64,000 nucleotides of DNA from Candidatus Methanomethylophilaceae archaeon (lineage in GTDB: Archaea > Thermoplasmatota > Thermoplasmata > Methanomassiliicoccales > Methanomethylophilaceae). Under the pieces are notes generated by a model, which made no database searches, was not told the origin of the DNA, and saw only the letters and a list, made by a program, of their open reading frames with translations. The position numbers and the translations under genes were made by a program. The first letter of the stretch is position 1, and each line of letters opens with the position of its first letter. Shown piece after piece: positions 46,089-64,000 of the stretch. The stretch covers positions 416,001 through 480,000 of the forward strand of contig JBMNHS010000001.1 in the NCBI GenBank assembly GCA_050950505.1. Reading direction: 5' to 3'.

Positions 46089-46176
46089 TCTAACAATTCA
46101 CTTATGTAATATTCTCACCAATAAAGACGGAACTGCTAAACAATTATACATATCCTTGAACTAAACAGGTTCAGAA

Positions 46177-47049
46177 ATGAAAGGAATCATACTCGCCGCG
46201 GGCAAAGGAACCCGGCTGCATCCGGCTTCGTTGCCGATATCAAAGATACTTCTTCCGGTTTACGACAAGCCGATGATATATTACCCGCTGTCAAATCTGA
46301 TAATGGGGGGCATACGGGAAATATTGGTAATCACGAACGAGGAAGACGATAATAAATTCAGGAAACTGCTCGGTGACGGTTCCCAGTTCGGCATCAAAAT
46401 CGATTACATGATTCAATACGTCCAACGCGGCATTTCCGATGCGTTTCTGATAGCGGAAGATTGGATTGACGGGGATGACGTGGTTCTTATTCTCGGCGAT
46501 AACATATTCTACGGCCGGGGGTTGGAAGAAACCATTGCTTCTGCATTGAAGAAGAACACCGGCGCCGTAGTGTTCGGATATGCCGTGGACGATCCGGAAA
46601 GATTCGGTGTCGTCGAGTTCGATGAAAGCAGGAAAGTTTTATCCTTGGAAGAAAAGCCGAAAGAGCCAAAGTCGAATTTTGCGGTGGTCGGTCTGTACTT
46701 TTACGATGGAAACGTGTGCGAGTATGCCAAGAAGTTAAACCTCTCGGACCGCGGAGAGTTGGAGATTACGGATTTGAATAAAATCTATATGAACGAAGGC
46801 AGACTCAGAGTCGAGGTCTTTGACGAGAACATCGGATGGATGGATGCCGGCACTTTCGATTCCTTGTTGGATGCCGGCAATTCTATAAGAGAAGTCAGGA
46901 AAGACACAGGCGTCAACGTGGGATGTCCCGAAGAGTCCGCTCTGAAAAAAGGATTTGTCACCAAAAAGAATGTGTTGGAATGGATTGGTAAATTCAAGAA
47001 CAACGACTACAGAGAGTATGTCGAAGAAATCTGCGAAAGATACGGTTGA
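46177..47049 (+). CDS. rfbA: Glucose-1-phosphate thymidylyltransferase
   Basis: GIILAAGKGTRL, YDKPMIYYPL, LGDNIFYG, EEKP and RGELEITD. Confidence 0.93.
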   Translation: MKGIILAAGKGTRLHPASLPISKILLPVYDKPMIYYPLSNLIMGGIREILVITNEEDDNKFRKLLGDGSQFGIKIDYMIQYVQRGISDAFLIAEDWIDGDDVVLILGDNIFYGRGLEETIASALKKNTGAVVFGYAVDDPERFGVVEFDESRKVLSLEEKPKEPKSNFAVVGLYFYDGNVCEYAKKLNLSDRGELEITDLNKIYMNEGRLRVEVFDENIGWMDAGTFDSLLDAGNSIREVRKDTGVNVGCPEESALKKGFVTKKNVLEWIGKFKNNDYREYVEEICERYG

Positions 47050-47361
47050 TTGTTTGTTTCTGCGGTGTCGATTGCTCAAACAGAGCCGCATACCGTCCGT
47101 TTCATGAAAGTATCGGATTTTATTTCCAAATTTATTCAAGGCATCGTTTCTGACGTTATAATCTGTACGCAAATTCTGTAAAACAACGTTTCCAAATCAT
47201 ACCGAATAACCATTCGGATTTTTATCTTATGCCTCATTTTAAGAGATAATTACCGTTGAATCGATAACTACAATTATACTAACTTTCGGATATAGTTATA
47301 CTAACTGTATACCATAAATTTATAATAGTTTATAAATAAAAAATAAAAATATTTATCATGT

Positions 47362-49533
47362 ATGCGAGGCAAACTCCCCGCGATATCCGCAGCATTCATA
47401 ATTGTGGCAATCCTGATTTTCTTAGGCTCGGTTTCTGATCCGTGCTTTAACAGGAACATACAGGATTCTGAAAAAACATCTCAATTTTTTCCTTTTTCGG
47501 GTGATGAGGCCGATCAGGCAGAGAATTTTATTTATGAACTGAAAAACAATAAAATCAAAATCATCGGATACACAGGGTCATCCGACAATGTAACGATACC
47601 CGGTATGATTGAAAGCAGTCCCGTAACGGAAATCGGTGACAATGCGTTTTCGAACAATAAAAAAATAAAATCGTTATCTGTACCCGATTCAGTGATTCGC
47701 ATCGGTATTTCTGCTTTTGAAAACTGTCAGAAACTTGAGAATGTTGTTTTGGGAAACGGGGTCAAACTTATCGATTACAGTGCGTTCAAGAGTTGTTCTT
47801 CTCTTAGCGTCTTACAATTCAAGGGGGATGCGCCAAGTGTGGGAAACATGTGGATTTCGGGCGCCGCGGACAGTTTGACGATATATTACGTAGAAGGAAA
47901 AAAGAAATTCGATACTTCGGACTGGAAAGTACTGAATCTTGAACCTTTGAATGTTCCGGACCCTCCGATACACCCTTCTGTTATTTCCGGGGAATCGTCA
48001 ATGGATTTTTCATGGCAGATGTCGGACACAGTTGAACCGGAGATTATTCTGGGATTTGAGATTTTGTATAAAAAATCAGGAAACGAAGAATGGACAACAT
48101 TGTTCGTTAAAAACGGATTCGAAGTGAAAATCGGGAATCTGAGCAACGGAACCGAATATGAAGTCTGTGTTTCCGCGGTCAATATCGCAGGTTCGGGAAA
48201 TCCGAGCGACATCGTGACGGCAACACCCTTTACGATTCCTGAAGCACCCGTTCTTAAAGTTGTTGAAGAGGACGACAGGACAGTTTTAATCTGGAACATC
48301 CCGAATAATATGGGTTCGGCAATCACGGAATATGCCGTTTATCGGGACAATGCCAGAATTGCATCTATTGGTCCTGCCGACACAGAATACAGGATTGAGG
48401 GTCTGGAAAAAGGGATTGTTTACAACTTTTCAATAACGGCTTCCAATTGTGCAGGAGAGAGTTCCGGAAGCAATATTGTTGAGGTAATGTTGAAAGAAAC
48501 ATATACGGCCTCTTTCGTCGTGGACGATGTTGTCGTTGAATCTGCAACATTGAAAGAAGGAAAAGAAATCCTTCAGCCCACAGATCCGCAAAAGAACGGT
48601 CATATGTTTGCAGGGTGGAATCCGGATGTTCCGGAATTCATGCCTGCGCATGACGTAATTATGAAAGCAATCTGGCACATGATAACGGATGTTCCGAATC
48701 CTGTTCTTGATTTGTATTACAACGGAGAATATCAAACCGGATTTCCCGTTGATGAAGGATACGGGGTATCAGGTGATTATCCCATGAAAGATGCCGGCAA
48801 TCATATGGTGAACCTTACGTTGAAAGAAGGATTTGTGTGGAGCGACGGGACGTATGAAATCAAGGAACTGGTATGGAAAATTAACCCGAAAATAGTATAC
48901 GTTTATCCGGAAAAGGATCAGCAAAAACGTTACTTTGACGAGGATCCGGATTTGAAGTACAGGCTTTCTGAAAATCTGTCCGTCTCGGGGAAGCTCGACA
49001 GAGTTTCCGGCGAAAATCTTGATAGTTATGGAATAAACATCGGATCTTTGAACTCTGAAAACAGCAACTACCGTCTTGAAATGGGTGAAGAAACAGTGTA
49101 TTTCACGATAATTGCGGCATATCCCGGAACGCCTGTTGGGTTGGAAGTGATTTTTGACGATGAATGTACAAGATTGCGATGGTGTGCACCCGATTTCGAT
49201 GGCGGTTGTGATATGTTACACTATGAGGTTTGGATGAAATCGAATGACGGTAGTTGGAAGCTGTATGAGACAATCGAAAATCAAGAATTCTGTGATATTT
49301 CATCAGAGTCGGATACAGCGTACGGATTAATGGTAAAGGCCGTGAATTCTGCGGGAGCATCTGAATTCTCGGAGATTGTTTCAATTGAAGTGAGCGATGC
49401 CGTGAGATACGAAGGGGACAGAGCAAACACTGAAATTGAAAGCTGTGAAAAAGATAACATGGTTTTCATAACATCGTTTATTTTGATCACAGTACTGGGT
49501 CTTGTATTGATACTTCTGAACAGATCCCGATGA
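47362..49533 (+). CDS. Cell-surface adhesin-like protein (BspA-type LRR, FN3 repeats, InlB B-type repeat, MBG-like domain, C-terminal TM)
   Basis: Signal/TM N-terminus, IGxxAFxxC repeats, FN3 motifs (YEVCVSAVN), PQKNGHMFAGW and a C-terminal hydrophobic anchor. Confidence 0.85.
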   Translation: MRGKLPAISAAFIIVAILIFLGSVSDPCFNRNIQDSEKTSQFFPFSGDEADQAENFIYELKNNKIKIIGYTGSSDNVTIPGMIESSPVTEIGDNAFSNNKKIKSLSVPDSVIRIGISAFENCQKLENVVLGNGVKLIDYSAFKSCSSLSVLQFKGDAPSVGNMWISGAADSLTIYYVEGKKKFDTSDWKVLNLEPLNVPDPPIHPSVISGESSMDFSWQMSDTVEPEIILGFEILYKKSGNEEWTTLFVKNGFEVKIGNLSNGTEYEVCVSAVNIAGSGNPSDIVTATPFTIPEAPVLKVVEEDDRTVLIWNIPNNMGSAITEYAVYRDNARIASIGPADTEYRIEGLEKGIVYNFSITASNCAGESSGSNIVEVMLKETYTASFVVDDVVVESATLKEGKEILQPTDPQKNGHMFAGWNPDVPEFMPAHDVIMKAIWHMITDVPNPVLDLYYNGEYQTGFPVDEGYGVSGDYPMKDAGNHMVNLTLKEGFVWSDGTYEIKELVWKINPKIVYVYPEKDQQKRYFDEDPDLKYRLSENLSVSGKLDRVSGENLDSYGINIGSLNSENSNYRLEMGEETVYFTIIAAYPGTPVGLEVIFDDECTRLRWCAPDFDGGCDMLHYEVWMKSNDGSWKLYETIENQEFCDISSESDTAYGLMVKAVNSAGASEFSEIVSIEVSDAVRYEGDRANTEIESCEKDNMVFITSFILITVLGLVLILLNRSR

Positions 49534-49655
49534 GCCGGCAATCGTCTGATTACCTGATGACATCGCATTCATCAGACCCATTCAGTATATTTTACGTTAT
49601 TATGTGCTGTCAATCAGCCTGTCGATTCAGTATCACAGTGTAGCATATGACAATG

Positions 49656-50756
49656 TTAAATTGACAATTCTGCCTTTACACAATCCAGGCAGGCTCTGAT
49701 AACTTTATCCATGTCGTAATACTTGTAACTGCCAAGTCTTCCGCCGAATATGACATCCTTTTCTTTCTTAGCCAGGATTTCATATTCCTTGTAAAGTTTT
49801 TCATTTCTGTCATCGTTGATGGGGTAATACGCCTCCATTCCCGGTTTCCAGGTTGCCGGATACTCCTCGGTCACGACGGTTTTGGGCTGTGTTCCGAATT
49901 CAAAATGTTTGTGTTCAATGATTCGCGTATACGGAACTTCCGATCCCGTATAATTCACAACAGCAACACCTTGGTAATTATCCGTGTCCTCAATCCTTGA
50001 TTCAAACCTAAGAGATCTGTATTCCAGATGTCCCAGACTGAAGTTGAAGTATTCGTCTATCATCCCCGTGAATACCAATCTATCTGCGATTTTCTTGAAG
50101 TCTCTGTATTTTTCAAAAAAGTCACAATTCAACTCCACGTCAATACCTTCAAGCATTTTTCCAATCATTGAAGTGTATCCTCCGATGGGTATTCCCTGGT
50201 GGGGATCGTTAAAATAATTGTTATCGAACGTGAATCTCAGCGGGAGTCTTCTTATTATCGATGCCGGAAGATCTTTGCAACTTCTGCCCCATTGTTTTTC
50301 AGTGTATCCCTTTACCAACTTTTCAAAGATGTCTGTGCCCACCATCGATATAGCCTGTTCTTCCAGATTTGCCGGATCATGGTTCAAAACAGGAATCTGG
50401 GACTGTATTTTTTCCTTTGCTTCTTTCGGTGTTTTCACATTCCATATTTTACTGAACGTGTTCATGTTGAACGGCATGTTGTACAGTTCATCCCCGATTC
50501 TGGCTATGGGCGAGTTAACGTAATTGTTGAATTCGGCAAATCCGTTTACGTACTTCCATACTTCTTCGTCCGCGGTATGAAATATGTGGGCGCCGTACTT
50601 GTGTACATCAATCCCTTCAATTTTTTCGCAGTAAACGTTTCCTCCGACGTGGTCGCGTTTATCGATGACAAGGCATTTTTTCCCATGTTTTTTTGCTATG
50701 TTGGCAAAGACGGAACCATACAGTCCCGCACCCACTATCAGATAATCGTATTTCAT
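49656..50756 (-). CDS. glf: UDP-galactopyranose mutase
   Basis: GAGLYG, HKYGAHIFHT, YTEKQWG, YYPIND and GRLGSYKYYDMD. Confidence 0.97.
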   Translation of the reverse strand: MKYDYLIVGAGLYGSVFANIAKKHGKKCLVIDKRDHVGGNVYCEKIEGIDVHKYGAHIFHTADEEVWKYVNGFAEFNNYVNSPIARIGDELYNMPFNMNTFSKIWNVKTPKEAKEKIQSQIPVLNHDPANLEEQAISMVGTDIFEKLVKGYTEKQWGRSCKDLPASIIRRLPLRFTFDNNYFNDPHQGIPIGGYTSMIGKMLEGIDVELNCDFFEKYRDFKKIADRLVFTGMIDEYFNFSLGHLEYRSLRFESRIEDTDNYQGVAVVNYTGSEVPYTRIIEHKHFEFGTQPKTVVTEEYPATWKPGMEAYYPINDDRNEKLYKEYEILAKKEKDVIFGGRLGSYKYYDMDKVIRACLDCVKAELSI

Positions 50757-51736
50757 CTTCCCACCTTACTGTGCCAGTTCCATGCGGTTTTTATTATGTT
50801 TTCGATCGAAGAATGTACGGGATTCCAGTTGAGAACCTCTTTGGCTTTGCTGTTGTCCGCAACAAGGATATCCGGGTCCCCTTCTCTTCGGTTTTCCAAA
50901 ATCACGTTCAATTTTTTATCTGTTATATTCTGAACGGAATCCACCAGTTCAAGAACGGATACGCCTTTCCCTGTGCCGAGATTGAAACAATCGCTTCTCT
51001 CTTCTCTGAAAAGATATTCAATGGCTTTTATGTGGGCATCGGCTAAATCTGTGACGTGAATATAATCTCTGATACAGGATCCGTCATGTGTGTCATAATC
51101 GGTTCCGAACACATAGAACCGGTCCCGTAAACCGAGAGCGTTTTGAAGAAGAATCGGAATAACATGAGTTTCCGGGTCGTGCATTTCTCCGATATCTCCG
51201 TCGGCATCCGCACCGGCTGCGTTGAAATAACGAAGACTGACATATTTCAGTCCGTATGCGTTGTCGTAATCACTCAGCATTCTTTCAAAAATAAGTTTCG
51301 TCCATCCGTAGGGGTTGACCGGCCATTGTTTTTCACTTTCGGTTATGGGTACCGTCTGAGGGATTCCGTATGTTGCGCAGGATGATGAAAATACTATTTT
51401 TTTAATTCCTGTTTCAACCATGGCATCAAGCAATACTTTGCTTTTGACGACATTGTTTTCGTAATATTTTTGGGGATCCGAAACGGATTCACCAACGCAT
51501 GCCAAAGCAGCAAAATTGACAACGGCATCAATATTATTTTCTTTGAAAATTTTGGCCATAAGAGAAAAATCCCCAATGTCTCCTATGACATATTTTGCAC
51601 CGTCTATTCGAGGGATGTTTTCTTTCGGCACATTATCCAGTACGATAACATCGTAATTTTCAATCAGCTCTTTAACCGTATGAGATCCGATGTATCCCGC
51701 ACCACCCAAAACCAATATTCTTTTCCTGACAGACAG
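50753..51736 (-). CDS. galE: UDP-glucose 4-epimerase
   Basis: GGAGYIGSH, YGWTK, LRYFNAAGA and RDYIHV; probable CTG start at 51736. Confidence 0.95.
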   Translation of the reverse strand: MSVRKRILVLGGAGYIGSHTVKELIENYDVIVLDNVPKENIPRIDGAKYVIGDIGDFSLMAKIFKENNIDAVVNFAALACVGESVSDPQKYYENNVVKSKVLLDAMVETGIKKIVFSSSCATYGIPQTVPITESEKQWPVNPYGWTKLIFERMLSDYDNAYGLKYVSLRYFNAAGADADGDIGEMHDPETHVIPILLQNALGLRDRFYVFGTDYDTHDGSCIRDYIHVTDLADAHIKAIEYLFREERSDCFNLGTGKGVSVLELVDSVQNITDKKLNVILENRREGDPDILVADNSKAKEVLNWNPVHSSIENIIKTAWNWHSKVGR

Positions 51737-51924
51737 AATTTCACCTTACCGTTAATCTTCGATAATAACATGCAAGGTTACATAAACATATCTTGGTTCT
51801 TACAGACGTTATATAGTATGCTTTGATTATTGGAAAGTACAAGTGAAACGGCACATCTTAAAACACAACGGGTTATAAACGTTGAAGATAAATGCATGTT
51901 TATCTGGTATGGGAAAATTGATTT

Positions 51925-52719
51925 ATGAAAATTGGAAAGGCCATTAAAGGGAAATTGAAAGCACTCTACAATTTCAGACACATGTATTATTCTCTGGTTC
52001 AGCGGAGTTTGTATGGGAAATACAAAAATTCCGTATTGGGATTCTTATGGAATTTTTTGACACCGACAATAACAATTCTACTGTTCTATATCGTTTTCAG
52101 TAATTTTATGGGAGGTTCAATCGATCACTTTTGGGCATATCTTTGCGTAGGTATGTTTCCTTTTCAGTTCATGAATGATAATCTGATCGGAGGTGCATCG
52201 AACATTACGTCAAACGGAGAAATGGTCAAGAAAATGTATTTTCCGAGAGAAATACTGCCTTTGTCTCAAGTCACGTACACGTTCATAGTGTTCCTCATAG
52301 CGTACGGCATAATCGCAATTTTGATGTACGCCTCAGGCGCTCTATCATTTAACGGTATATGGGCGTTCCCAATCGTTTTAGTGACGATGTTTATCTTTAC
52401 CTTTGGAACCATACTGTTCACATCCTCAATCTCTGTGTACTCCCGGGACTTTCAGTATCTTATAACAGCATTATCCAAATTACTGTTTTGGATAACTCCC
52501 ATATTCTATACGATAGAGTCTGTGTCGGGATTATTGTACAGACTGCTCTGGTTTAATCCATTGACTTATTACGTTGAAGGATTCCACAGTGTGATGTACC
52601 ACGGAACGATACCCGGAAACGGAATAATGTTGGGATGTATTGTTCTGGCGATTGCATCGCTCACGGTAGGTTTGTGGACTTTCAACAAATTGAAAGACGG
52701 ATTTGCGGAGAGAATCTGA
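51925..52719 (+). CDS. ABC-2 polysaccharide/teichoic acid exporter permease (Wzm/TagG-like)
   Basis: KYKNSVLGFLW, KKMYFPRE, RDFQY, TPIFY and NPLTY. Confidence 0.92.
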   Translation: MKIGKAIKGKLKALYNFRHMYYSLVQRSLYGKYKNSVLGFLWNFLTPTITILLFYIVFSNFMGGSIDHFWAYLCVGMFPFQFMNDNLIGGASNITSNGEMVKKMYFPREILPLSQVTYTFIVFLIAYGIIAILMYASGALSFNGIWAFPIVLVTMFIFTFGTILFTSSISVYSRDFQYLITALSKLLFWITPIFYTIESVSGLLYRLLWFNPLTYYVEGFHSVMYHGTIPGNGIMLGCIVLAIASLTVGLWTFNKLKDGFAERI

Positions 52720-52720
52720 A

Positions 52721-55351
52721 ATGTCCGAATATGCAGTACGTGTAAGAAATGTAAACAAATCCTTTACCACAAGAGCCGAAGATAACGATGGCGGGTTTCT
52801 TAAAAAAAGGAAAAAGATTACGAGACATGTAATCAAAAACATCAGTTTCGATATTAAAAAAGGTGAAGTTTTCGGTATAATAGGAAGAAACGGTTCAGGT
52901 AAAAGCACTACGTTGAATATGATTTCCAGGATAATGAAGCCCGATTCCGGTACCATAGAAATCAATGGAAAGGTTGCCAGTATTTTGGAACTGGGTATGG
53001 GGTTTCATAACGATTTGAGCGGAAGGGAAAATATCTACATCAAAGGAACCATGTACGGTTTCGCAAAAAATCAACTTGACGAACGGATTGAAGATATAAT
53101 CGATTATGCGGACATAGGAGAATATATCAATCTTCCCATGAGGGTATATTCTTCGGGAATGCGCAGTCGTCTGGCATTTGCAATTATGATTAACGTCGAT
53201 GCGGATATTGTGATTTTGGACGAAGTGCTTGCAACCGGAGATCTGGCGTTCAGAAAAAAATCCAGTACACATTTCATGAACATGAAAAATAAAGGTAAGA
53301 CCATAATTTTGGTCGCACACTCAATGTCAACGATGAGGGAGATGTGCGATAGGGTCGCCTGGTTGGAGAAAGGAGTCATCAGGGAAGTCGGTATTCCGAA
53401 TGTGGTTTGCGGTCATTATGAAACGGAATTGGCTGAATCTCTGGAGATAATAACGGATTTGGCGGAAGCCGGTGTTCCATATTCTCAGAACGTGTTAGGT
53501 TGCATGTACCGTGACGGAAACAAAGTCGAGAAAAATCTGGATCTGGCAATCTACTGGTTCAGAGAAGCGATAAAAAGAAGTAACGATCCTGCAAAAATAA
53601 ATTTGGCTGATTTGATCGTATCCGGAGAAGTATCTGATGATAGGGAAGATGCGTTGGATTTGTATATGAGCGCGGCCCAGAGAGGAAACAGAGACGCACG
53701 TACAAAACTATCGAGACTTCTGACTCAGAAAACGCAAGACATCAATAAAGAATTGATAGAGGGCTACAAAGAACTTTTACCCTCTGGCAATCCCCAGATT
53801 TATTACGAGTATGCTGAACTTTTAATGAAATCTGCTTGGAACAATGAAGATAGAAAAGAGGCTTTGAGGTGGTTTAAGAAAGCTTCGGAGTACGGCAACA
53901 TGCATGCTATGTACCAAGTTGCCATAATGTATCGTGATGGCACAGGACCCGAACAGAGCGATTCAAACTATCTGTCCTGGTTAAAAAAGGCGGCAGAACA
54001 TGGGCATGCGAATTCGCAATTCACTTTGGGTAATATGTACCGTGACGGAATCAAAGTGGAACATGACAATACTGAGGCGTTCTATTGGTTCAAGATGGCC
54101 GCTGACAACAATCACATTGATGCGATATTTCAAATCGCCATAATGTACCGTGAAGGAATTGGAGTGGAAAAAAATCTGGATGATTCAGATTACTGGCTCA
54201 AATTATATTCACAACACGGACTGTATCGTCAAATCAATACCCTTGCGGATTCGTTTTCGAATTGTAAAAATGAAGTGTATGACCCGGAGATGGGCATAAA
54301 ATGGTACAGGGTAAACGCGGAACACGGATACGCGGATTCGAATTATAGACTTGGGATGCTGTTGATTAATGGAAAAGATGAAGGCAGCAAATCTGATGCA
54401 ATATCTTCTTTTGTTTTTGCCGCGGAACGAAACCATTTGCTGTCTATTGCCCAATTGTTTAATCTCCATGCATTGGGTGAAGTTGATAACGTATGCAGAG
54501 ATGACTTGTTACGAAAATTAGAGGTGTTGGTTACTGGGGGAAACGTGTGGGCTGCAAACGATATAGGTATTATTTACGCAGGCGGCAAGACTGTCCAACC
54601 GGATATAGATAAAGCAATACATTATATCAAAATAATCGGTGAAGCGGGTAACGCCAACGCATTGCACAGATTAGGAATGATATACAGAGATGGCGTGTTG
54701 ATTAAACAAGATTTCGACGAAGCCGTTAAATGGTTTGAAAGAGGAGCACTCCTAGGTAACATCCATTCTGCAATGTCTTTAGTTGAACTTTATGCAATAG
54801 GCAATACAGAAGAAAATGTTTGCAAAAGAGCCATTGGGCATATCGAAAATATGTGTAAATCAGGGGATGTATTCGCCATGAAGACTTTAGGCAGATACTA
54901 TCTTGATGGCATTGCTGTAAAACAAAATTATCAAAAAGCGTTATATTGGTATGAAGTGGCTTCTAAACTAGGCGACCCTGGTGCCATATATGATTTAGGG
55001 ATGATTTATAAACACGGAAAAGGCGTGGATATGGATTTAAAGCGTGCATTAGAATTATTCATTTCATCTTCTGACCGTGGACACATCGCGTCTATAATCG
55101 CTATAATGGATATGTATAATCAGGATTCAATTGATAAAGAGTATTTTGATGTTGCATTGAGCCGCTTGGAAACATTGGCCACTGGAGGGAATATTACCGC
55201 GATGCGAAATATAGGGGACATATATTACGATGGCAGATACGGGATAAACGATTCAATGAAGGCTAAAGGGTGGTTCGAAAAAGCATCTTTATTGGGAGAT
55301 GCGCATTCTCGCAGAAAATTAGAGAATATAGAATCATTAAATAAGCCATAA
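52721..55351 (+). CDS. Wzt/TagH-like ABC ATPase fused to a long C-terminal Sel1-repeat array
   Basis: GRNGSGKST, YSSGM and ILDEV, followed by about 630 aa of LGxMYRDG..A..WF..AA repeats. Confidence 0.92.
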   Translation: MSEYAVRVRNVNKSFTTRAEDNDGGFLKKRKKITRHVIKNISFDIKKGEVFGIIGRNGSGKSTTLNMISRIMKPDSGTIEINGKVASILELGMGFHNDLSGRENIYIKGTMYGFAKNQLDERIEDIIDYADIGEYINLPMRVYSSGMRSRLAFAIMINVDADIVILDEVLATGDLAFRKKSSTHFMNMKNKGKTIILVAHSMSTMREMCDRVAWLEKGVIREVGIPNVVCGHYETELAESLEIITDLAEAGVPYSQNVLGCMYRDGNKVEKNLDLAIYWFREAIKRSNDPAKINLADLIVSGEVSDDREDALDLYMSAAQRGNRDARTKLSRLLTQKTQDINKELIEGYKELLPSGNPQIYYEYAELLMKSAWNNEDRKEALRWFKKASEYGNMHAMYQVAIMYRDGTGPEQSDSNYLSWLKKAAEHGHANSQFTLGNMYRDGIKVEHDNTEAFYWFKMAADNNHIDAIFQIAIMYREGIGVEKNLDDSDYWLKLYSQHGLYRQINTLADSFSNCKNEVYDPEMGIKWYRVNAEHGYADSNYRLGMLLINGKDEGSKSDAISSFVFAAERNHLLSIAQLFNLHALGEVDNVCRDDLLRKLEVLVTGGNVWAANDIGIIYAGGKTVQPDIDKAIHYIKIIGEAGNANALHRLGMIYRDGVLIKQDFDEAVKWFERGALLGNIHSAMSLVELYAIGNTEENVCKRAIGHIENMCKSGDVFAMKTLGRYYLDGIAVKQNYQKALYWYEVASKLGDPGAIYDLGMIYKHGKGVDMDLKRALELFISSSDRGHIASIIAIMDMYNQDSIDKEYFDVALSRLETLATGGNITAMRNIGDIYYDGRYGINDSMKAKGWFEKASLLGDAHSRRKLENIESLNKP

Positions 55352-55540
55352 TCAAAATGGACATGGGTTTGCAGGGGACAGAAACAAAAACCAAAATAAA
55401 CTACAGTATACATCAAATGATACACGCAAGAAATATTATACAGACTCACGCAATACTTTTAAGAAATATGTGGTGCAACCAAACGTCATCATCAAGGATA
55501 CAGGGTGATTACCATATGTTCGAAATATTTGGAGATTGTA

Positions 55541-56665
55541 ATGAAAGTCCCTGAACTGATGGAAATAATCGGAGAAGATCATTTCTATACCGGAGTTCCC
55601 GATTCGTTATTGAATAATTTTTGCAGATATGTGATGGATAAATACGGTATCGGTGAAAATCACGTTATTGGGGTAAACGAAGGAGCGTGTACCTCCCTTG
55701 CTGCGGGCAGATATCTGTCGACGGGAAAGATTCCTGTAATATATATGCAAAACAGCGGAATAGGCAATACAATCAATCCTACAGTTTCTCTTATTTCTAA
55801 AGAGGTTTACGGTATACCCTGTATCTACCTTGTCGGTTGGCGTGGTGAACCCGGAAATCACGATGAGCCTCAACACATGCTTCAGGGTAAAATCACACCG
55901 GCTTTGCTGGAGTCTTCAGGGTTGGAGACATTATACCTGACCAAAGATACAAAATATGACGATTTCAAGAGAGATTATGAAAAAATTTCGACATGTTTGA
56001 AAGACGGAAAATCTCTGGCCATAATAGTTTCCAAAGGAGCTTTGGAGTACGAGGGAAATTACAAACAATCAAATAATAACAAAATCACACGCGAAGATGC
56101 AATAAACACCCTACTGGACTGTTCCGGTAAAGGGCTCTTTATATCTACAACCGGAAAAACATCCAGAGAACTGTTCGAATTACGAAAAAAAAGAGGGGAG
56201 CCTCACGATTTTGATTTTCTTACTGTTGGATCCATGGGTTACAGTTCTTCGATTGCATTGGGTATAGCTACGGGAACAGACTGTGATGTCTGGTGTCTTG
56301 ACGGGGACGGTTCTATGTTGATGCATATGGGGGCTATGAGTATGATAGGATCGATGAAACCTCCTAATTATTTCCATGTTCTCTTCAATAATGAATCTCA
56401 CGAATCGGTTGGAGGATATCCGACACCAATAACATCAATCAATATGTGTAAGGTTGCGGAATCTTGCGGATATGCGTCAAACCATTCGGTATCAACGACT
56501 GAAGAGTTGAAATCTGTTCTAGTCGAGATCAAAAAATATCCCGGTCCTCATTTTGTTGAAGTGAAAGTGACAATCGGATCCAGAAATGATTTGGGCAGAC
56601 CAACAATTACCCCTATTGAAAACAAACAAATTTTTATGAACAAAATTAGAGGATTCAAACAATGA
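55541..56665 (+). CDS. aepY: Phosphonopyruvate decarboxylase
   Basis: GVPDSLL, NEG, YMQNSGIGN, GWRGEPG.HDEPQH, VGSMG, DGDGS (ThDP) and DLGRP. Confidence 0.95.
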   Translation: MKVPELMEIIGEDHFYTGVPDSLLNNFCRYVMDKYGIGENHVIGVNEGACTSLAAGRYLSTGKIPVIYMQNSGIGNTINPTVSLISKEVYGIPCIYLVGWRGEPGNHDEPQHMLQGKITPALLESSGLETLYLTKDTKYDDFKRDYEKISTCLKDGKSLAIIVSKGALEYEGNYKQSNNNKITREDAINTLLDCSGKGLFISTTGKTSRELFELRKKRGEPHDFDFLTVGSMGYSSSIALGIATGTDCDVWCLDGDGSMLMHMGAMSMIGSMKPPNYFHVLFNNESHESVGGYPTPITSINMCKVAESCGYASNHSVSTTEELKSVLVEIKKYPGPHFVEVKVTIGSRNDLGRPTITPIENKQIFMNKIRGFKQ

Positions 56666-58665
56666 AAGCACTAATCCTAAACTCCGGAAAAGGCACACGC
56701 ATGGGTAATTTAACAAAAGACGGTCCAAAATGTCTTGTTAAATTGTATGACAATACAACCATATTGGAGCGACAACTGTCTATTTTGGAAAAATACGGAA
56801 TATCCGATATAATTTTAACAACCGGACAATATGACAAGGAAATCCGTGAAGTTTGTTCGAACTACCCAAGTTTAAAATTTACATTCGTATTTAACGAACT
56901 TTACGATACCACAAACTACATATATTCAATTTATAAATCGAAGGATTGCCTGGATGACGATATATTGTTGTTACACGGGGATTTGATTTTTGAAGAATAT
57001 GTTATTTTAAGATTATTAAATTCAGAAAACAGTTGTGTGGCGGTAAACAGCCACCAGACAAATCCTAACAAAGATTTCAAAGCCGATGTATGTGACGGTC
57101 GCGTTTCAAAAATCAGTGTCGAGCCAAGATATGGAAGCGTATCTTCACAACCTGCATACAAATTGAATAAAACCGATATGGGTACATGGTTGGATAAAAT
57201 ATCGGAGTATTGCGAATCGGGAAACACGAGCTCCTACGCTGAAGAGGCATTGAACGATGTTTTAGACTCTATCGAAATGATGCCCATCAATTTGGAAAAT
57301 ATCGTTTGCATGGAGATTGATAACTTGGAAGATTTGTCCATGGCCAACGGCATGTTGATGAAACTTCCAGGGCGAAAAGTCTATCTTTCAATATCTTCGG
57401 ATGTAATCCATGACGGTCACATCAATATTATTCAATATGCGGCTTCGTTGGGAGAGCTGACTGTGGGGATAATGTCTGATGAGGCCATAGCCACTTACAA
57501 ACATTATCCCATTCTTCCATTCGAGAAAAAAAGGAAAATCATCTCCAATATCAAAGGTGTATCTCGAACCATAATGCAGGAGAAACTGAGTTATGAAGAA
57601 GTTATAACAAAATTAAAGCCCGATATCGTTGTGCACGGTGACGAATGGAGACACGGCGTATTGAGTCCCATAAGAATTGAAGTGATTGAGCTGTTGGATA
57701 AGTACGGCGGCCTTCTTATAGAACCCCCATACACCAAAGGTCAGGAGCACGGTATTCTTGAAAATAAAATCAAAGAAGAACTTTCGATACCTGAAAACAG
57801 ACGTGCCAGTCTCAAAAAATTGCTAAAATTGAAAAAATGCATCAGGGTAATGGAAGCGCATAACGGACTCACCGGACTCATCGTCGAGAAAACAAAGGTT
57901 GCACATAACGGAGAGATCAGACAGTTCGATGCAATGTGGATTTCATCACTGTGTGATTCTACCGCCAAAGGGAAACCCGACATAGAATTAGTGGATATGA
58001 CTTCGAGGATGGATACGATAAATGAGATATTGGAAGTAACAACCAAACCGATAATTTTAGACGGAGATACCGGCGGCATATTGGAACATTTCTTGTTCAA
58101 TGTGAAAACTCTTGAAAGAAGCGGAGTTTCCGCAATAATAATAGAGGATAAAATCGGATTAAAGAAAAACTCATTGTTTGGAACGGAAGTACCTCAGATG
58201 CAAGACGATCCGGATAATTTTGCAATGAAAATATCCGCGGGTAAAAAAGCTCAACTTTCAAAAGATTTTATGATTATTGCACGGATAGAGAGCTTAATCT
58301 TGGAAAAAGGGATGGATGACGCTCTTATGAGAGCTAAAAAATATGTCACTGCCGGCGCAGATGGAATAATGATACACAGTAAGAAGAAAGACCCTGCTGA
58401 AATATTCGAATTCATTGAGAGATTTAGAGGCCTCGATTCCATAACTCCTTTGGTTGTTGTTCCCACATCGTATAATCATGTCAAAGAGGATGAATTCAAA
58501 GAGAGGGGAGCGAACATCGTAATATATGCCAATCACCTCATAAGAGCAGCGTTTCCTGCCATGCAGAGTGTTGCGGAATCTATACTAAAAAATCAACGTT
58601 CTCTGGAAGTCGATGAAGATTGTTTGTCCATAAAAGAAATAATAACTCTGATTCCCGATGAGTGA
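56662..58665 (+). CDS. aepX: Phosphoenolpyruvate mutase fused to N-terminal LicC/PntC-like nucleotidyltransferase and HxGH cytidylyltransferase
   Basis: ILNSGKGTRM..PKCL; HDGH..HGDEW; EAHNGL, WISSL and the PepM-diagnostic EDKIGLKKNS. Confidence 0.96.
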   Translation: MKALILNSGKGTRMGNLTKDGPKCLVKLYDNTTILERQLSILEKYGISDIILTTGQYDKEIREVCSNYPSLKFTFVFNELYDTTNYIYSIYKSKDCLDDDILLLHGDLIFEEYVILRLLNSENSCVAVNSHQTNPNKDFKADVCDGRVSKISVEPRYGSVSSQPAYKLNKTDMGTWLDKISEYCESGNTSSYAEEALNDVLDSIEMMPINLENIVCMEIDNLEDLSMANGMLMKLPGRKVYLSISSDVIHDGHINIIQYAASLGELTVGIMSDEAIATYKHYPILPFEKKRKIISNIKGVSRTIMQEKLSYEEVITKLKPDIVVHGDEWRHGVLSPIRIEVIELLDKYGGLLIEPPYTKGQEHGILENKIKEELSIPENRRASLKKLLKLKKCIRVMEAHNGLTGLIVEKTKVAHNGEIRQFDAMWISSLCDSTAKGKPDIELVDMTSRMDTINEILEVTTKPIILDGDTGGILEHFLFNVKTLERSGVSAIIIEDKIGLKKNSLFGTEVPQMQDDPDNFAMKISAGKKAQLSKDFMIIARIESLILEKGMDDALMRAKKYVTAGADGIMIHSKKKDPAEIFEFIERFRGLDSITPLVVVPTSYNHVKEDEFKERGANIVIYANHLIRAAFPAMQSVAESILKNQRSLEVDEDCLSIKEIITLIPDE

Positions 58666-59729
58666 GTTCTGTGCAAAAAATCATCGAAACTTCCAATTAT
58701 TTTTCTGCGTTGAAAGACGAATTGTCCGGATGCAAGGCACCCCTGTTTGTATACACGGAATCGTTTAAAAAAAGGGATCAATTCAAGAAAATACAGAATA
58801 TATCTCATGAATCATTTTCTGATTTCTCGTACAATCCCGATTACGAGAGCATAGTCAATGGAGCTGAGGTGTTTAAAAAAAATAATTGTGACGGCCTGGT
58901 CTCCATAGGAGGGGGAAGCTCCATCGATGTTGCCAAAGGCATCAAACACATATTAAACAAAAAAGATCTGATGCATATTTCTATCCCTACGACTTCCGGA
59001 ACAGGCAGTGAATCGACACAGTTCGCTGTCGTTTACAAAAACGGCATAAAAACTTCTCTTGATTCTAAAGAATTATTGCCCGATATAGCAATTTTAGACG
59101 GTTCGTTAACTCGTACTTTGCCCGATTTTCAGAAACGTTGTACATTGTTGGATGCTTTATGTCAATGCATCGAATCCCATTGGTCTCTCGCTTCCACGTC
59201 TGAAAGTAGAATGTACAGCAGCATGGGACTAAAGTTTATTTTATCCAATTATAAACAATACTTAGAGAACAATCTCGACGTTTATCAAGATATAATGCTC
59301 GGATCCAATTTCAGCGGAAGAGCAATAAATATCACACGGACAACAGTTTCTCATGCTCTGAGTTACGTTATCACCAAAGATTACGGAGTGCCTCATGGAT
59401 GTGCTGTCGCATTGACAATTATTCCTTTTTGGACGTATTTATCATCCAATATAAGCAATACTACACATGCCGGTGGCGAATCCTTTATGATGGAACGCTT
59501 AACGGAATTAAGCAATGCATTCGGAGGGGAAACAATATCTGAAGGTATAGATTTTGCAGATAACACAATATCAGAAATTCTCCCTGTAACAGGCGTGCAA
59601 GATCTTGATATCGAAAATGTTCTGTCTCACGTTGACATCAATCGCTTAAAAAATTATCCAATGCATTTAGAAATAAACGATATAAAGAAAATATCGCTCG
59701 ACTTAATATCGCCCAGGAATCAAAAATGA
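58662..59729 (+). CDS. Phosphonoacetaldehyde reductase (iron-containing alcohol dehydrogenase)
   Basis: GGGSSIDVAK, IPTTSGTGSE, SHALSY..PHG; GTGA overlap with pepM. Confidence 0.88.
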   Translation: MSSVQKIIETSNYFSALKDELSGCKAPLFVYTESFKKRDQFKKIQNISHESFSDFSYNPDYESIVNGAEVFKKNNCDGLVSIGGGSSIDVAKGIKHILNKKDLMHISIPTTSGTGSESTQFAVVYKNGIKTSLDSKELLPDIAILDGSLTRTLPDFQKRCTLLDALCQCIESHWSLASTSESRMYSSMGLKFILSNYKQYLENNLDVYQDIMLGSNFSGRAINITRTTVSHALSYVITKDYGVPHGCAVALTIIPFWTYLSSNISNTTHAGGESFMMERLTELSNAFGGETISEGIDFADNTISEILPVTGVQDLDIENVLSHVDINRLKNYPMHLEINDIKKISLDLISPRNQK

Positions 59730-59744
59730 TATCCAGTAAATTCA

Positions 59745-61991: not shown

Positions 61992-64000
61992 TTAATGTCT
62001 AGAACGTTTATTTTTACCATCTGCCGGTTCAAAATCTTTATAATACTTGTCAATTATGGCTTTTAATTTTATTATCTTCTCATTTGTCAGATTATTATGC
62101 CTGTGTGTAAATGCATCATTAGGTATGGTGTTATAATTCCCATAAAGTCCCCTGAGCATCAAATCAGAATTTTTAGGAATCTTAATAGGTATATTTTCAA
62201 ACATTGCATCTTTCAAAGGTAATATGTCTGTTAGGGATAATGCACTTTTTGATGTTTCACCAATAGTCAAATTATCGATGCCCCACGTCGCCGATGTAGT
62301 TTTATCAATCTCTTTGGAATTGTAACTAATTCTATATTCTGAAATTATTTTTTCTAATTCCTTAATCTGATTGTCGTTTAATAAGGCTCCGGGCTCCAGT
62401 TCATTTTGAATTCTAAATTTGGTAGCCGCATTGCAGAGTTTTTTTCTATCCCGCCTATATATCTTTTCCAAAGAATCGGTTGTTGCTTTATATGCATCGA
62501 ATATGAATATGTCTATTCTAAAAATATATCCGTATCCTTTAAAACTCATGTTGTATATGTGATGCGGGCCATCATATATTCTGTACTCTTCTCTCAAATT
62601 CATGTTTGGGTAAAGTTTTTCAACAATGTCCTTAAGTTGATGTATTTCATGTCTGAACATCCCCACGTCTAAATCGTCATCCCATGGAATAAATCCCTGA
62701 TGTCGGACAGCACCCAATAAGGTCCCTGCAAAGGACCAGTATGTCAATCCGTGATCTTTGCATATTTTATCAAATTCCCTCATTAGTATTACCGAACAAA
62801 TTTGCAACAGACGTAGTTCGCCACTCGTAATAGGCATACGGTGAAAAAATTCGTTTTTTCCCTGATTTTCTAATTTGCTAAAATCTCGTTTAGATAAGTA
62901 TTTATTAAGTTTTGAATAGGATGTATTTGGATTCAATATGTCATTATCACTTAAAACTGATAAATCAATCGCCCACTCCATCCATGATAGTGCGATACTA
63001 TAATTTTGTTCTATAGATGCGTTACCGTTATAGTATATCGACGCGACTTTAGACATTGCATTTAATATTTTTCGTTGATTTAAAGAATCAAGATATGTGA
63101 CAACATCTAAAAAATTTGTACATGGTGGTATTTTAGGATATTCACCATTCAAATTTCCAATGCCCCAAAGGATATCAAACAGTTCTCTTGGAGCCCATTT
63201 CACACCGCCATCCACAGCCTTTCTCATCCACTCCGCCGCAACGTAAAGATTTTTTTCCACGCCTTTGCCGTGGTAGTATGCCCTTCCTAAGCGACCCATG
63301 GAAGCAAAATCTCCTTTTTTTGCGGATTCGGAAACGATGGAAATCATATCTTCATAGGATTCGGGGGATCCAATGCCCCAAAGGATATCAAACAGTTCTC
63401 TTGGAGCCCATTTCACACCGCCATCCACAGCCTTTCTCATCCACTCCGCCGCAACGTAAAGATTTTTTTCCACGCCTTTGCCGTGGTAGTATGCCCTTCC
63501 TAATCGACCCATGGAAGCAAAATCTCCTTTTTTTGCGGATTCGGAAACGATGGAAATCATATCTTCATAGGATTCGGGGGATCCAATATCCCAAAGGATA
63601 TCAAACAGTTCGCTTGGAGCCCATTTCACACCGCCATCCACAGCCTTTCTCATCCACTCCGCCGCAACGTAAAGATTTTTTTCCACGCCTTTGCCGTGGT
63701 AGTATGCCCTTCCTAATCGACCCATGGAAGCAAAATCTCCTTTTTTTGCGGATTCGGAAACGATGGAAATCATATCTTCATAGGATTCGGGGGATCCAAT
63801 ATCCCAAAGGATATCAAACAGTTCGCTTGGAGCCCATTTCACACCGCCATCCACAGCCTTTCTCATCCACTCCGCCGCAACGTAAAGATTTTTTTCCACG
63901 CCTTTGCCGTGGTAGTACATACGACCTATGTTATTCGCTACCGCGGGGTATTGATTGACAACTTCTACACATCTATCGAATGCAAACTTCCAGTTCTCGG
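61992..64000 (-). CDS. LicD family phosphotransferase with N-terminal Sel1 repeats (5' end outside the window)
   Basis: FAGTLLGAVRHQGFIPWDDDLDVGM and LYGNY..IP; the frame stays open from ATG 63920 to the window end. Confidence 0.92.
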   Translation of the reverse strand, partial: ENWKFAFDRCVEVVNQYPAVANNIGRMYYHGKGVEKNLYVAAEWMRKAVDGGVKWAPSELFDILWDIGSPESYEDMISIVSESAKKGDFASMGRLGRAYYHGKGVEKNLYVAAEWMRKAVDGGVKWAPSELFDILWDIGSPESYEDMISIVSESAKKGDFASMGRLGRAYYHGKGVEKNLYVAAEWMRKAVDGGVKWAPRELFDILWGIGSPESYEDMISIVSESAKKGDFASMGRLGRAYYHGKGVEKNLYVAAEWMRKAVDGGVKWAPRELFDILWGIGNLNGEYPKIPPCTNFLDVVTYLDSLNQRKILNAMSKVASIYYNGNASIEQNYSIALSWMEWAIDLSVLSDNDILNPNTSYSKLNKYLSKRDFSKLENQGKNEFFHRMPITSGELRLLQICSVILMREFDKICKDHGLTYWSFAGTLLGAVRHQGFIPWDDDLDVGMFRHEIHQLKDIVEKLYPNMNLREEYRIYDGPHHIYNMSFKGYGYIFRIDIFIFDAYKATTDSLEKIYRRDRKKLCNAATKFRIQNELEPGALLNDNQIKELEKIISEYRISYNSKEIDKTTSATWGIDNLTIGETSKSALSLTDILPLKDAMFENIPIKIPKNSDLMLRGLYGNYNTIPNDAFTHRHNNLTNEKIIKLKAIIDKYYKDFEPADGKNKRSRH
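63156..63917 (-). repeat. Near-identical 213-bp (71-aa) tandem repeat, about 3.6 copies, encoding paired Sel1-like motifs
   Basis: GCAAAATCTCC recurs at 63304, 63517 and 63730. Confidence 0.95.

Follow-up and report, generated by a model that had tools for sequence, protein, structure and literature searches.

In this Methanomassiliicoccales archaeon, the gene at 52721..55351 encodes the ATPase subunit of a predicted exporter for a lipid-linked glycan, of the Wzm/Wzt (ABC-transporter-dependent) type, and the long Sel1 solenoid that follows its nucleotide-binding domain (NBD) occupies the position held by the Wzt_C carbohydrate-binding module in the sampled sister families. The exporter was identified from the family of the NBD, from the adjacent and coupled permease gene, and from the glycan-cluster context. 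Our preferred reading, to which we give a probability of about 40%, is that the Sel1 tail serves as a cytoplasmic docking platform that couples tailoring and capping enzymes to export. The relevant features of the window, that is, the whole stretch of 64,000 nucleotides that was analysed, are as follows.

49656..51715, minus strand: UDP-galactopyranose mutase and NAD-dependent sugar epimerase/dehydratase (GLF, E 1.2e-82; Epimerase, E 1.1e-54)
51925..52719, plus strand: Wzm-type ABC-2 permease of 264 aa, partner of the ATPase (Pfam ABC2_membrane, E 2.7e-14)
52721..53437, plus strand: Wzt/TagH-type nucleotide-binding domain, aa 1-239 (ABC_tran, NCBIfam, Foldseek)
53438..54259, plus strand: proximal Sel1 tail, hairpins 1-8, aa 240-513 (model helices; conserved family-wide)
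54260..55351, plus strand: distal Sel1 tail, hairpins 9-18, aa 514-876 and stop (sequence and repeat number vary between lineages)
55505..56665, plus strand: phosphonopyruvate decarboxylase (NCBIfam TIGR03297, 428.9 bits against a cut-off of 312.5)
56662..58665, plus strand: two nucleotidyltransferase domains fused to PEP mutase (NTP_transf_3, CTP_transf_like, PEP_mutase; TIGR02320, 416 bits against a cut-off of 319.55)
58662..59729, plus strand: Fe-dependent alcohol dehydrogenase, possibly a phosphonoacetaldehyde reductase (Fe-ADH, E 3.2e-31)
61992..64000, minus strand, continuing beyond the window: LicD-family transferase with an N-terminal Sel1 tag (LicD, E 8.1e-32; Sel1, E 6.2e-28)
63156..63917, minus strand: 213-bp tandem repeat, 3.6 copies, 99% identity (Tandem Repeats Finder)

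The open reading frame of the ATPase gene extends from 52703 to 55351 on the plus strand, with a probable start at ATG 52721 preceded by GGAG, and specifies a product of 876 aa; the coordinates given by an earlier sequence-only reading, 52721..55351, match this analysis exactly. A single nucleotide lies between this ATG and the stop codon (TGA) of the ABC-2 permease gene upstream, and the two adjacent genes are translationally coupled. The same reading had described an ATPase of about 240 aa that runs on without a stop into about 630 aa of Sel1 repeats, which was confirmed by the Pfam search and the AlphaFold2 model.

It is extremely improbable that the fusion is an artefact of assembly or gene calling, with two separate genes, one for an ATPase and one for a Sel1 protein, wrongly joined. 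Nothing positive speaks for this; in the relative G122 the gene looked split in the genome search. Against it, 117 of the 120 best homologues listed, drawn from many assemblies, carry the fused form with both PF00005 and PF08238 present, and contigs from three independent DNA runs bridge the junction near 53440, where a check of read coverage had been proposed, with no indel and no joint. One bridging metagenome contig of 12,352 nt covers 52000-54358 with 0 gaps. The 34 substitutions listed among strain variants of the gene comprise 21 synonymous and 13 non-synonymous changes and 0 stops, and neither a stop nor a frameshift separates the ATPase from the Sel1 region in the bridging contigs or the strain variants. 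Four short contigs from an RNA-library run (X20) also lie on the gene, one of them across the junction; such libraries may contain DNA. A natural split form in G122 was considered and rejected, as a run of N inside the gene explains it. Flags of "1 TGA inside" for G046, G061 and G085 were also rejected, the 874-aa ORFs being intact.

Several comparisons place the NBD. Pfam ABC_tran was matched at aa 39-169 (E 3e-22), and the best NCBIfam matches of aa 4-238 were TagH, galactan Wzt and TagH, with TagH PRK13545 at the top (E 4.1e-61). Because the scores lie below every TagH and Wzt equivalog cut-off of NCBIfam (207.3 against 538, 177.8 against 400, and 171.2 against 320 bits), the ATPase is, as far as its sequence places it, a member of the broad Wzm/Wzt-TagGH-KpsMT class and of no named equivalog. 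The sole NCBIfam match of the permease is a galactan Wzm/RfbD permease, below the cut-off of that family. A Foldseek search with the NBD found A. aeolicus Wzt (6m96) with TMt 0.88 and 39% identity, and further matches were TagH 7dd0, TarH 6jbh, M. abscessus Wzt and KpsT. The motifs read in the sequence are intact: a Walker A motif GRNGSGKST at residues 55-63, a YSSGM signature at 143-147, the Walker B motif ILDE at 165-168 and the H-loop His 200. Across 69 homologues there is no variation at G55, N57, G58, G60, K61, S62, T63, Y143, S144, G146, M147, D167 and E168.

The Pfam Sel1 family (PF08238), whose repeats are alpha/alpha hairpins of about 36 aa, was matched in the ATPase protein with E 8.6e-59 and 194.3 bits, against a gathering cut-off of 30.7. 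In the AlphaFold2 model of the 876-aa protein (pLDDT 88.6, pTM 0.76) the NBD extends to aa 239 and is followed by 36 helices, forming 18 hairpins, over residues 241-873, with no strand past aa 224. The top PDB matches of the tail in Foldseek are SLR structures (6ok3, 4bwr, SEL1L 8ket, 8sxq and 6deh). Wzt_C (PF14524) was absent from the ATPase protein in a Pfam search at E 0.01 or better, and the same search found it in all four Wzt proteins (414-425 aa) sampled from sister families of the same order. A crude scan found no membrane segment in the tail, where the 19-residue Kyte-Doolittle mean never rises above 1.6; the most hydrophobic 19-residue stretch belongs to the NBD core, with a mean of 1.62 at aa 151-153. 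The Sel1 tail must be cytoplasmic because it is without a membrane segment. The suggestion that a carbohydrate-binding module is here replaced by a cytoplasmic scaffold thus holds as regards the position of the tail and the side of the membrane on which it lies.

Of 151 genomes sampled across the order, 63 belong to the window's own family, and 24 of these have the fused form; in the other families matches end at the NBD. Among the species genomes sampled, the Wzt-Sel1 architecture is confined to this one family of the methane-producing Methanomassiliicoccales. The sources of homologues include the cultured relatives Methanomethylophilus alvi and strain ISO4-H5. A search of genome contigs with the single ATPase protein as query gave no relative, and the conserved words sit in the NBD. 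The literature search found no paper on a Wzt-Sel1 fusion and, for Methanomassiliicoccales together with phosphonate, only unrelated papers. The reservation that the architecture might be common and already characterised is correct in its first part, within one archaeal family, and no characterising work was found for the second. The premise that Wzt proteins are either bare or carry a carbohydrate-binding module proved too narrow, since TagH-type extensions exist.

In an alignment of the 69 homologues, hairpins 1-8 are gap-free and the majority-residue fraction over aa 240-500 is 0.56, against 0.68 in the NBD; over aa 501-876 this fraction is 0.34-0.41, with gaps of about 20%. The conservation of the proximal hairpins and the purifying selection in the strain variants indicate that the tail is under constraint and argue against a passenger. 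A second exporter ATPase, encoded 16 kb away in a cluster with GlfT2-like, GT2 and GT4 genes and without phosphonate genes, is a paralogue with 61% identity over 873 aa and zero gaps. The identity is 83% in the NBD, 64% over aa 240-500 and 45% over aa 501-876. The paralogues diverge most strongly in the distal tail, as would be expected of a specificity determinant.

The lack of indels between the paralogues would also suit a quite different and unlikely explanation, in which the tail acts mainly as a stiff spacer or ruler that sets the membrane-to-terminator distance and so the chain length, or as a self-association element that clusters exporters, with no specific docking of the tagged enzymes. 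The same can be said of the same-genus orthologues, all of 874-876 aa, of the uneven lengths of the homologues (658-997 aa, with many at 721-754 and 866-880), and of the continuous solenoid that was predicted with confidence (pTM 0.76). The pathway has a precedent in the coiled-coil ruler of WbdD, a protein treated in PMC3482155. The tip of such a ruler must still hold something, however, which brings docking back in, and tail length varies between genera.

Downstream of the exporter genes, the alcohol dehydrogenase scored 111.9 bits with the phosphonate-type family TIGR03405, well under its cut-off of 423.7, so that its possible role as phosphonoacetaldehyde reductase is suggested by the gene context. 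The full LicD ORF (G000:C1:477992-480103) encodes 703 aa; the ORF called within the window has 642 aa, with a start internal to the full one, and its aa 1-260 hold the tag. Its Sel1 tag contains three Sel1 matches of equal score spaced 213 nt apart, and the 213-bp tandem repeat encodes the 71-aa two-hairpin super-repeat of this tag. A distinct Sel1 super-repeat tag of about 70 aa is fused to LicD, GT8, GT2, pyruvyltransferase, methyltransferase and DUF6270 proteins, and the tag on glycan enzymes is a new observation here. The LicD tag is the best match of the Sel1 modules on other glycan enzymes. The enzyme-borne modules are mutual best matches, with 30-50% identity and 80-240 bits, and match the Wzt tails mostly with 23-31% identity and 40-76 bits, apart from one 102-aa match at 35%. 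The best 120 longer tag-bearing proteins include 9 with LicD, 20 with DUF6270, 7 with GT2, 2 with GT8 and 1 with DUF1919.

A second Sel1-bearing ORF was found within flanks of 10 kb or less in 12 of 28 exporter loci (10 of 24 genomes), a count that comes from related, not independent, genomes and whose first four loci were chosen after the co-location had been seen, a selection partly corrected by the later extension to all exporter loci of the 151-genome sample. In 8 loci (7 genomes) the second ORF is joined to a recognised domain, these domains being LicD, GT8, PS_pyruv_trans, methyltransferase with DUF6270, DUF6270 (twice), and DUF1919 with GT8. Some neighbouring Sel1 ORFs consist of Sel1 only or have a catalytic part that matches no recognised domain. 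No second Sel1 gene was present in the flanks of 16 of the 28 loci, five of them on contigs that are short or end close to the locus, nor within 17-20 kb in the same-genus genomes G046 and G085, which encode the 874-aa orthologue. The tag occurs without the tail in G138, where a bare 251-aa Wzt and a methyltransferase-Sel1 protein share one cluster. Searches with the ATPase query found no Wzt-Sel1 protein in G007, G034 and G144, which have large Sel1 proteins, or in G165, which has a tag-like stand-alone Sel1 protein. DUF6270 is the commonest tagged domain. PDB sequence searches with a DUF6270 protein gave matches to its Sel1 part only, a word-index search gave 2 relatives, and two fold searches with the AlphaFold2 model of the 505-aa protein (pLDDT 84.9) gave lists taken up by SLR/TPR structures that aligned with aa 178-505.

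On the docking-platform reading, the tail would lie on the cytoplasmic face of the exporter and keep soluble tailoring and capping enzymes beside the transport channel. At the window locus, the docked enzyme would be the Sel1-tagged LicD protein, adding the phosphonate that the neighbouring genes make; at other loci its place would be taken by tagged GT8, GT2, pyruvyltransferase, methyltransferase and DUF6270 proteins. Protein-protein contact, in place of a module that reads completed chain ends, would couple chain finishing to export. Docking or coupling could use the conserved proximal hairpins as a shared surface, and lineage or glycan specificity could come from the variable distal ones. 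Taken together, the tail and its tagged neighbours hint at a way of tying chain finishing to export. Recruitment of biosynthetic enzymes had been proposed in the sequence-only reading, and the support for it is circumstantial: tailoring enzymes near exporters often carry Sel1 modules. The further proposal that the tail proofreads phosphonylation found no support, as the architecture is also found in clusters without phosphonate genes, among them that of the paralogue and the Kdo-type, nonulosonate, pyruvyl and methyl loci. Structure prediction of a complex of the tail (aa 240-876) with the LicD tag had a score of 0.00, with no call returned and controls absent, and weighs neither for nor against binding.

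Since Sel1/TPR solenoids can bind polysaccharide too, the tail may itself be the glycan reader, which we regard as doubtful but worth weighing seriously. It would then be a non-beta-sandwich analogue of the Wzt carbohydrate-binding module, with a groove that binds the chain or chain end and distal hairpins that give cap specificity, and the enzyme tags would be polymer-binding modules. Consistent with this, the tail has the same position as Wzt_C in the sister families, AlgK-type SLR/TPR polysaccharide-secretion proteins are among the structural matches, and the loci encode typical terminal residues, with Kdo-type (L011, L015), NeuB/CMP-sugar (L009), pyruvyl, methyl and phosphonate genes. The distal tail is, moreover, most divergent between paralogues that serve different clusters, and serotype-specific carbohydrate-binding modules are likewise the most divergent part of their proteins. 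Sel1 repeats are nevertheless best known as protein-protein modules, also to judge from PDB titles. The enzyme tags are alike across loci with different predicted caps, for which a common protein partner is the better fit, and hairpins 1-8, the most conserved part of the tail, are invariant with cluster.

The tail might also have a role unrelated to the cargo, such as ATPase regulation or localisation, or be a by-product of the Sel1 expansion of the family; this we consider improbable. Sel1 proteins are numerous in the clade, with up to 28-29 per genome and a mean of 9.3 in the host-associated clade, and have been read as host-interaction or adhesion factors or as "eukaryote-like" factors of Methanomassiliicoccales (PMC4153887 and PMC7883539). 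The source genome has 9 Sel1 ORFs, 7 of them non-Wzt, and Sel1 is joined to many unrelated domains, kinases and TIR among them, in the same database list that gave the tag-bearing proteins. For the ATPase protein adhesion is excluded, however, since its tail continues from a cytoplasmic ATPase domain with no membrane segment in between, and a crude scan of all 9 Sel1 ORFs of this genome found no N-terminal hydrophobic stretch that resembles a signal. The organism's DNA was present in metagenome runs from digester, bioreactor, landfill, wastewater and manure, which also speaks against this explanation, and the strong conservation and purifying selection speak against a passenger. The host-adhesion reading of Methanomassiliicoccales Sel1 proteins in PMC4153887 and PMC7883539 is hereby corrected in that at least the exporter-fused Sel1 proteins belong, within the cytoplasm, to envelope-glycan synthesis, as those fused to enzymes also appear to do. 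Among the 7 non-Wzt Sel1 ORFs of the source genome, the LicD protein is the only one fused to an enzyme, and its gene is located between the two exporter genes.

A central question of the ABC-transporter-dependent pathway is how only finished chains leave the cytoplasm, and in the solution known so far Wzt recognises the chain cap through a sugar-binding module. At the position of this cap reader one archaeal family carries a domain of a protein-interaction type, and many putative finishing enzymes bear a related module. If tail and tag dock, export control would be achieved in a second way, based on proteins, and glycoengineering would gain a natural plug-in system. Going beyond the docking platform as such, and as a conjecture that we think unlikely to hold in full, Methanomethylophilaceae may have swapped cap-reading for a modular docking code, with hairpins 1-8 as the receptor and the tag of about 70 aa as an exchangeable counterpart. 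The exporter would in that case be the site at which the entire finishing line comes together; the distance of capping from the membrane, and hence the chain length, would depend on how long the solenoid is, and tag copy number, which can change quickly as the 3.6 nearly identical copies of the 213-bp repeat suggest, would tune the degree of capping.

Of the known systems, the WzmWzt O-antigen transporters (A. aeolicus 6m96, 7k2t and 8dku; E. coli O9a) are close in the NBD, which is 39-41% identical to those of A. aeolicus with TMt up to 0.88. With the transporters that bear a carbohydrate-binding module, the exporter shares an adjacent ABC-2 permease, a glycan cluster and a C-terminal accessory domain directly after the NBD, whereas the accessory domain is a beta-sandwich of about 150 aa in those proteins and an all-helical solenoid of about 630 aa here, in an archaeal host. 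Recognition of the modified chain end by the Wzt CBD is described in PMC9445017. TagH/TarH (B. subtilis 7dd0; S. aureus TarGH 9cfl, 6jbh) provide the best NCBIfam match and close structural matches. B. subtilis TagH has a long C-terminal extension as well; in TagH of this type, the C-terminal domain is extracytoplasmic and follows a membrane segment, whereas the archaeal tail is without such a segment in a crude scan and is cytoplasmic. Bacterial ABC_tran proteins with TPR_14/TPR_19 (about 354 aa, a Rhodothermota cluster in the ESM Atlas, feature score 0.92, compared by description only) likewise append a short tail of helical repeats to a TagH/Wzt-like NBD, and differ in the much shorter tail, the other repeat families and the bacterial host. 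In WbdD of E. coli O9a (see PMC3482155), a rigid helical element together with a capping kinase/methyltransferase sets the chain end and length, and tagged methyltransferases occur in the archaeal loci as well, but the helical element is a coiled coil on the terminator in WbdD and a repeat solenoid on the transporter in the archaeal system. AlgK-AlgX (7ula) and SEL1L-HRD1 (8ket, 9og0) are structural matches to tail or tag in which a Sel1-like solenoid recruits a modifying enzyme or substrate receptors to a translocation machine of a membrane, and they thus provide a precedent for SLR scaffolds on such machines. These are separate periplasmic or luminal proteins and not a cytoplasmic extension of an ABC ATPase, and what is shared, judging by PDB titles and by their known functions, is the working principle only. 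For the proposed assembly of receptor and tag on the exporter, the model would be the cohesin-dockerin pairs of cellulosomes.

The exporter ATPase is encoded by an uninterrupted plus-strand ORF (52703–55351) whose likely start is ATG 52721, with a GGAG 5' of it and the TGA of the upstream gene 1 base before, giving a product of 876 aa. These limits match exactly those of the sequence-only reading, 52721–55351, and the fusion of ATPase and Sel1 repeats that it noted in one ORF was confirmed by the open frame, the Pfam domains and an AlphaFold2 model.

51925–52719, upstream of the exporter ATPase: ABC-2 permease gene (Pfam)
52721–55351, plus strand: exporter ATPase; ABC_tran at aa 39–169 (Pfam, E 3e-22), Sel1 repeats in the C-terminal part (Pfam, E 8.6e-59)

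The model, based on an alignment of 69 homologues (pLDDT 88.6, pTM 0.76), features the nucleotide-binding domain (NBD) through aa 239 followed by 36 helices, or 18 hairpins, over aa 241–873, with no β-strand beyond aa 224. By Foldseek, the NBD matched A. aeolicus Wzt with 39–41% identity and TMt up to 0.88, as well as TagH, TarH, M. abscessus Wzt and KpsT, and the tail matched SEL1L and solved Sel1-like repeat proteins. TagH and Wzt ATPases rank first in NCBIfam for aa 4–238, every score lying below the equivalog cut-off, and the protein belongs to the broad Wzt/TagH/KpsT class by its NBD motifs and closest relatives, its partner permease and its genomic context. It falls outside the cap-reading Wzt_C class because Wzt_C was tested for and is absent, and the lack of a membrane segment sets it apart from B. 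subtilis-type TagH. Since a hydropathy scan found no membrane-like segment in the tail, the solenoid is placed in the cytoplasm, attached to the ATPase. The protein is a Wzm/Wzt-type exporter subunit in which a cytoplasmic solenoid replaces the carbohydrate-binding module (CBM).

A search of public runs recovered the stretch in 20 rows, drawn from 15 studies of bioreactor, digester, landfill, wastewater and manure material, and contigs from three DNA runs of three studies were aligned to 52000–56000. No indels or joints were found in them over this interval; one 12,352-nt contig covers 52000–54358 gap-free and two 890-nt contigs cover 53383–54272. Independent contigs thus cross the junction, where the sequence-only reading had allowed for a stop or frameshift, without an indel, and none of the 34 substitutions listed within the gene (21 synonymous, 13 non-synonymous) creates a stop. 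ABC_tran and Sel1 occur together in 117 of the 120 best database homologues. The probability that the fusion is an artefact is negligible.

A search of 151 species genomes of the order Methanomassiliicoccales found matches reaching the tail only in the window's own family, Methanomethylophilaceae (24 of 63 genomes); those in the other families end at the NBD, in frames about 195–611 aa long. All four Wzt proteins examined from three sister families carry Wzt_C. Sampling 401 genomes across the phylum at a threshold of E 1e-60 gave matches in 20 of 47 own-family genomes versus 0 of 353 elsewhere. ABC_tran+Sel1 proteins form two ESM Atlas clusters (173 and 64 members), 89–100% archaeal where taxa are known. 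On account of this distribution the architecture is a family-wide trait and no singleton. The named homologues are Methanomassiliicoccales (Methanarcanum hacksteinii, strain ISO4-H5), with one cluster named as Ca. Methanomassiliicoccus intestinalis. The sequence-only reading would have been refuted by an architecture both common and already characterised; this one is common in one archaeal family and annotated just generically, but no description of it was found in the literature, subscription journals lying outside coverage. The Sel1 tail occupies the position where relatives carry the CBM, whose role in cap recognition is taken from PMC9445017, and it is possible, if unlikely, that the tail itself reads the glycan.

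Several variants were seen. One Wzt-Sel1 homologue (L023, G141:C55:1665–3134) holds a single in-frame TAG, which could reflect readthrough, Methanomassiliicoccales being known to encode pyrrolysine, or a real truncation. Some family members (L031–L036) have 100–230 aa in frame ahead of the NBD, which may partly be an effect of ORF calling, and database homologues P0079 and P0096 have DUF1919 or MORN repeats N-terminally. A bacterial ESM Atlas cluster (Rhodothermota, about 354 aa) joins a TagH/Wzt-like ABC domain to TPR_14/TPR_19 repeats and may be a short counterpart of the helical-repeat tail.

In the alignment of 69 homologues, aa 240–500 of the tail are gap-free (hairpins 1–8 span aa 240–513) and nearly match the NBD in conservation, with a majority-residue fraction of 0.56 versus 0.68, and the rest of the tail is far more variable (0.34–0.41, about 20% gaps). 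A second exporter pair is encoded in the window's own genome (1.33 Mb in 2 contigs), 16 kb downstream of the first, in locus L001.

L001:8263–9057: permease of the second pair
L001:9058–11685 (G000:C1:487058–489685): second Wzt-Sel1 ATPase, 875 aa

The two paralogues are 61% identical across 873 aa with zero gaps, with 83% identity in the NBD, 64% over aa 240–500 and 45% over aa 501–876. The conservation profile and these regional identities describe a tail whose stalk is constant and whose end varies. The tail has no DNA-level tandem repeat and is therefore an old, diverged array, and the solenoid is under purifying selection. Overall protein length ranges from 658 to 997 aa among the 69 homologues and is nearly equal in the two paralogues. 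A main role of the tail as a ruler or in clustering is rather improbable.

The neighborhood of the first exporter contains the following features.

47362–49533, plus strand: 723-aa protein with BspA-type LRR, fibronectin-III, Listeria-Bacteroides repeat and MBG domains
55505–59729, downstream of the exporter ATPase: three phosphonate genes, namely phosphonopyruvate decarboxylase and PEP mutase with two fused nucleotidyltransferase domains (both above NCBIfam cut-offs) and, third, Fe-alcohol dehydrogenase
59931–61640: DUF4277 protein and an ORF without family
Past 61640, opposite strand: LicD-family transferase with Sel1 repeats in its N-terminal half; the full ORF (703 aa) extends beyond the window
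63156–63917, minus strand: 213-bp tandem repeat, 3.6 copies, 99% identity, inside the LicD-Sel1 gene

Because an Fe-alcohol dehydrogenase is present and an aminotransferase absent among the three phosphonate genes, the head group may, judging from gene content, be 2-hydroxyethylphosphonate rather than 2-aminoethylphosphonate. The cluster of the second pair (GlfT2-like enzyme, GT2, GT4, epimerase) is separate and has no phosphonate genes. The sequence-only reading had the solenoid replacing the CBM and perhaps proofreading phosphonylation; the replacement holds, but the proofreading is unsupported, since exporters of this type also serve clusters whose predicted decorations differ widely. Overall, that interpretation is supported in part. 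The stretch 59931–61640 (GC 0.51 versus about 0.40 around it; DUF4277 is a transposase-associated family) resembles an insertion that separates LicD from the phosphonate genes. GC is 0.39–0.43 in the glycan region (46001–60000, 62001–64000) versus about 0.48–0.54 in the rest of the window, as expected of a variable surface-glycan island; two more low-GC bins (0.36–0.39) lie at 4001–8000. The product of 47362–49533 is an adhesin-like surface protein beside the glycan cluster, and the large subunit of archaeal/eukaryotic primase is also encoded in the window.

All fused exporter loci from the order search except two contig-edge fragments were compiled (28 loci, 24 genomes, flanks of 10 kb or less). 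A second Sel1-bearing ORF was found in 12 of 28 loci and 10 of 24 genomes, counts that span related, non-independent genomes and whose first four loci were picked after the co-location had been noticed. In 8 loci of 7 genomes this ORF also encodes a recognised domain: LicD in the window's genome, a single gene common to both paralogue loci, and elsewhere GT8, polysaccharide pyruvyltransferase, methyltransferase + DUF6270, DUF6270 (twice) and DUF1919 + GT8. Outside this count, a search with the enzyme-borne Sel1 tag found a DUF6270-Sel1 gene directly adjoining the exporter in G151. Of the seven Sel1 ORFs in the window's genome besides the two exporters, the LicD protein, located between both, is alone enzyme-fused. 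The enzyme-borne modules, or Sel1 tags, match each other best (30–50% identity, 80–240 bits), versus mostly 23–31% identity and 40–76 bits with exporter tails (one 102-aa match at 35%), and share a super-repeat of ~70 aa, a canonical Sel1 hairpin plus a variant hairpin. The 213-bp repeat of LicD-Sel1 is this unit; its 99% identity and near-identical 71-aa two-hairpin units point to recent amplification, and its copy number could be strain-variable or collapsed in assemblies. The tag is matched at E 1e-20 or better by 288 longer database proteins, the best 120 of which include LicD (9), DUF6270 (20), GT2 (7, one also with a glycerophosphotransferase domain), GT8 (2) and DUF1919 (1), those named being Methanomethylophilaceae. 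The lead of greatest interest is this co-occurring family of tags on glycan enzymes. Some relatives' exporter loci encode Kdo-type (KdsA-, KdsD-, KdsB-like) or nonulosonate genes (NeuB, CMP-sugar synthetase, GT29/GT52-like), at L011:11083–14106, L015:7736–8530 and L009:3630–5737 and 10047–11042; such sugars are typical chain-end residues.

We tentatively propose, at a probability of about 0.4, that the tail is a docking platform: it would hold tailoring or capping enzymes, many bearing the common Sel1 tag, at the exporter, and chain finishing would be coupled to export through protein contact. Against such coupling, the flank of 16 of 28 exporter loci lacks a second Sel1 gene; five of these loci sit on short contigs or close to a contig end, and the remainder include two same-genus genomes with 874-aa orthologues. 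G138 has a methyltransferase-Sel1 protein together with a bare 251-aa Wzt, and the exporter query used found no tailed exporter in G007, G034 and G144, which encode large Sel1 proteins, or in G165, which has a tag-like stand-alone one. Several Sel1-bearing neighbours have no identifiable catalytic domain. A role of the tail unrelated to cargo is quite improbable.

Sel1 proteins of Methanomassiliicoccales are counted in passages of PMC4153887 and PMC7883539 and read there as gut adaptation or adhesion-type 'eukaryote-like' proteins, with no mention of an ABC fusion in those passages. This reading sits badly with the absence of a signal-peptide-like N-terminal hydrophobic stretch from all nine Sel1 ORFs of the window's genome (crude scan) and with the organism's DNA occurring in digester, bioreactor, landfill, wastewater and manure runs.

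Among known systems, the exporter ATPase resembles CBM-bearing Wzt in its accessory-domain logic. In working mode, the tail may be likened to SLR scaffolds such as AlgK-AlgX and SEL1L-HRD1, which recruit modifying enzymes or receptors to translocation machinery, and by analogy the protein would work most like the two combined.
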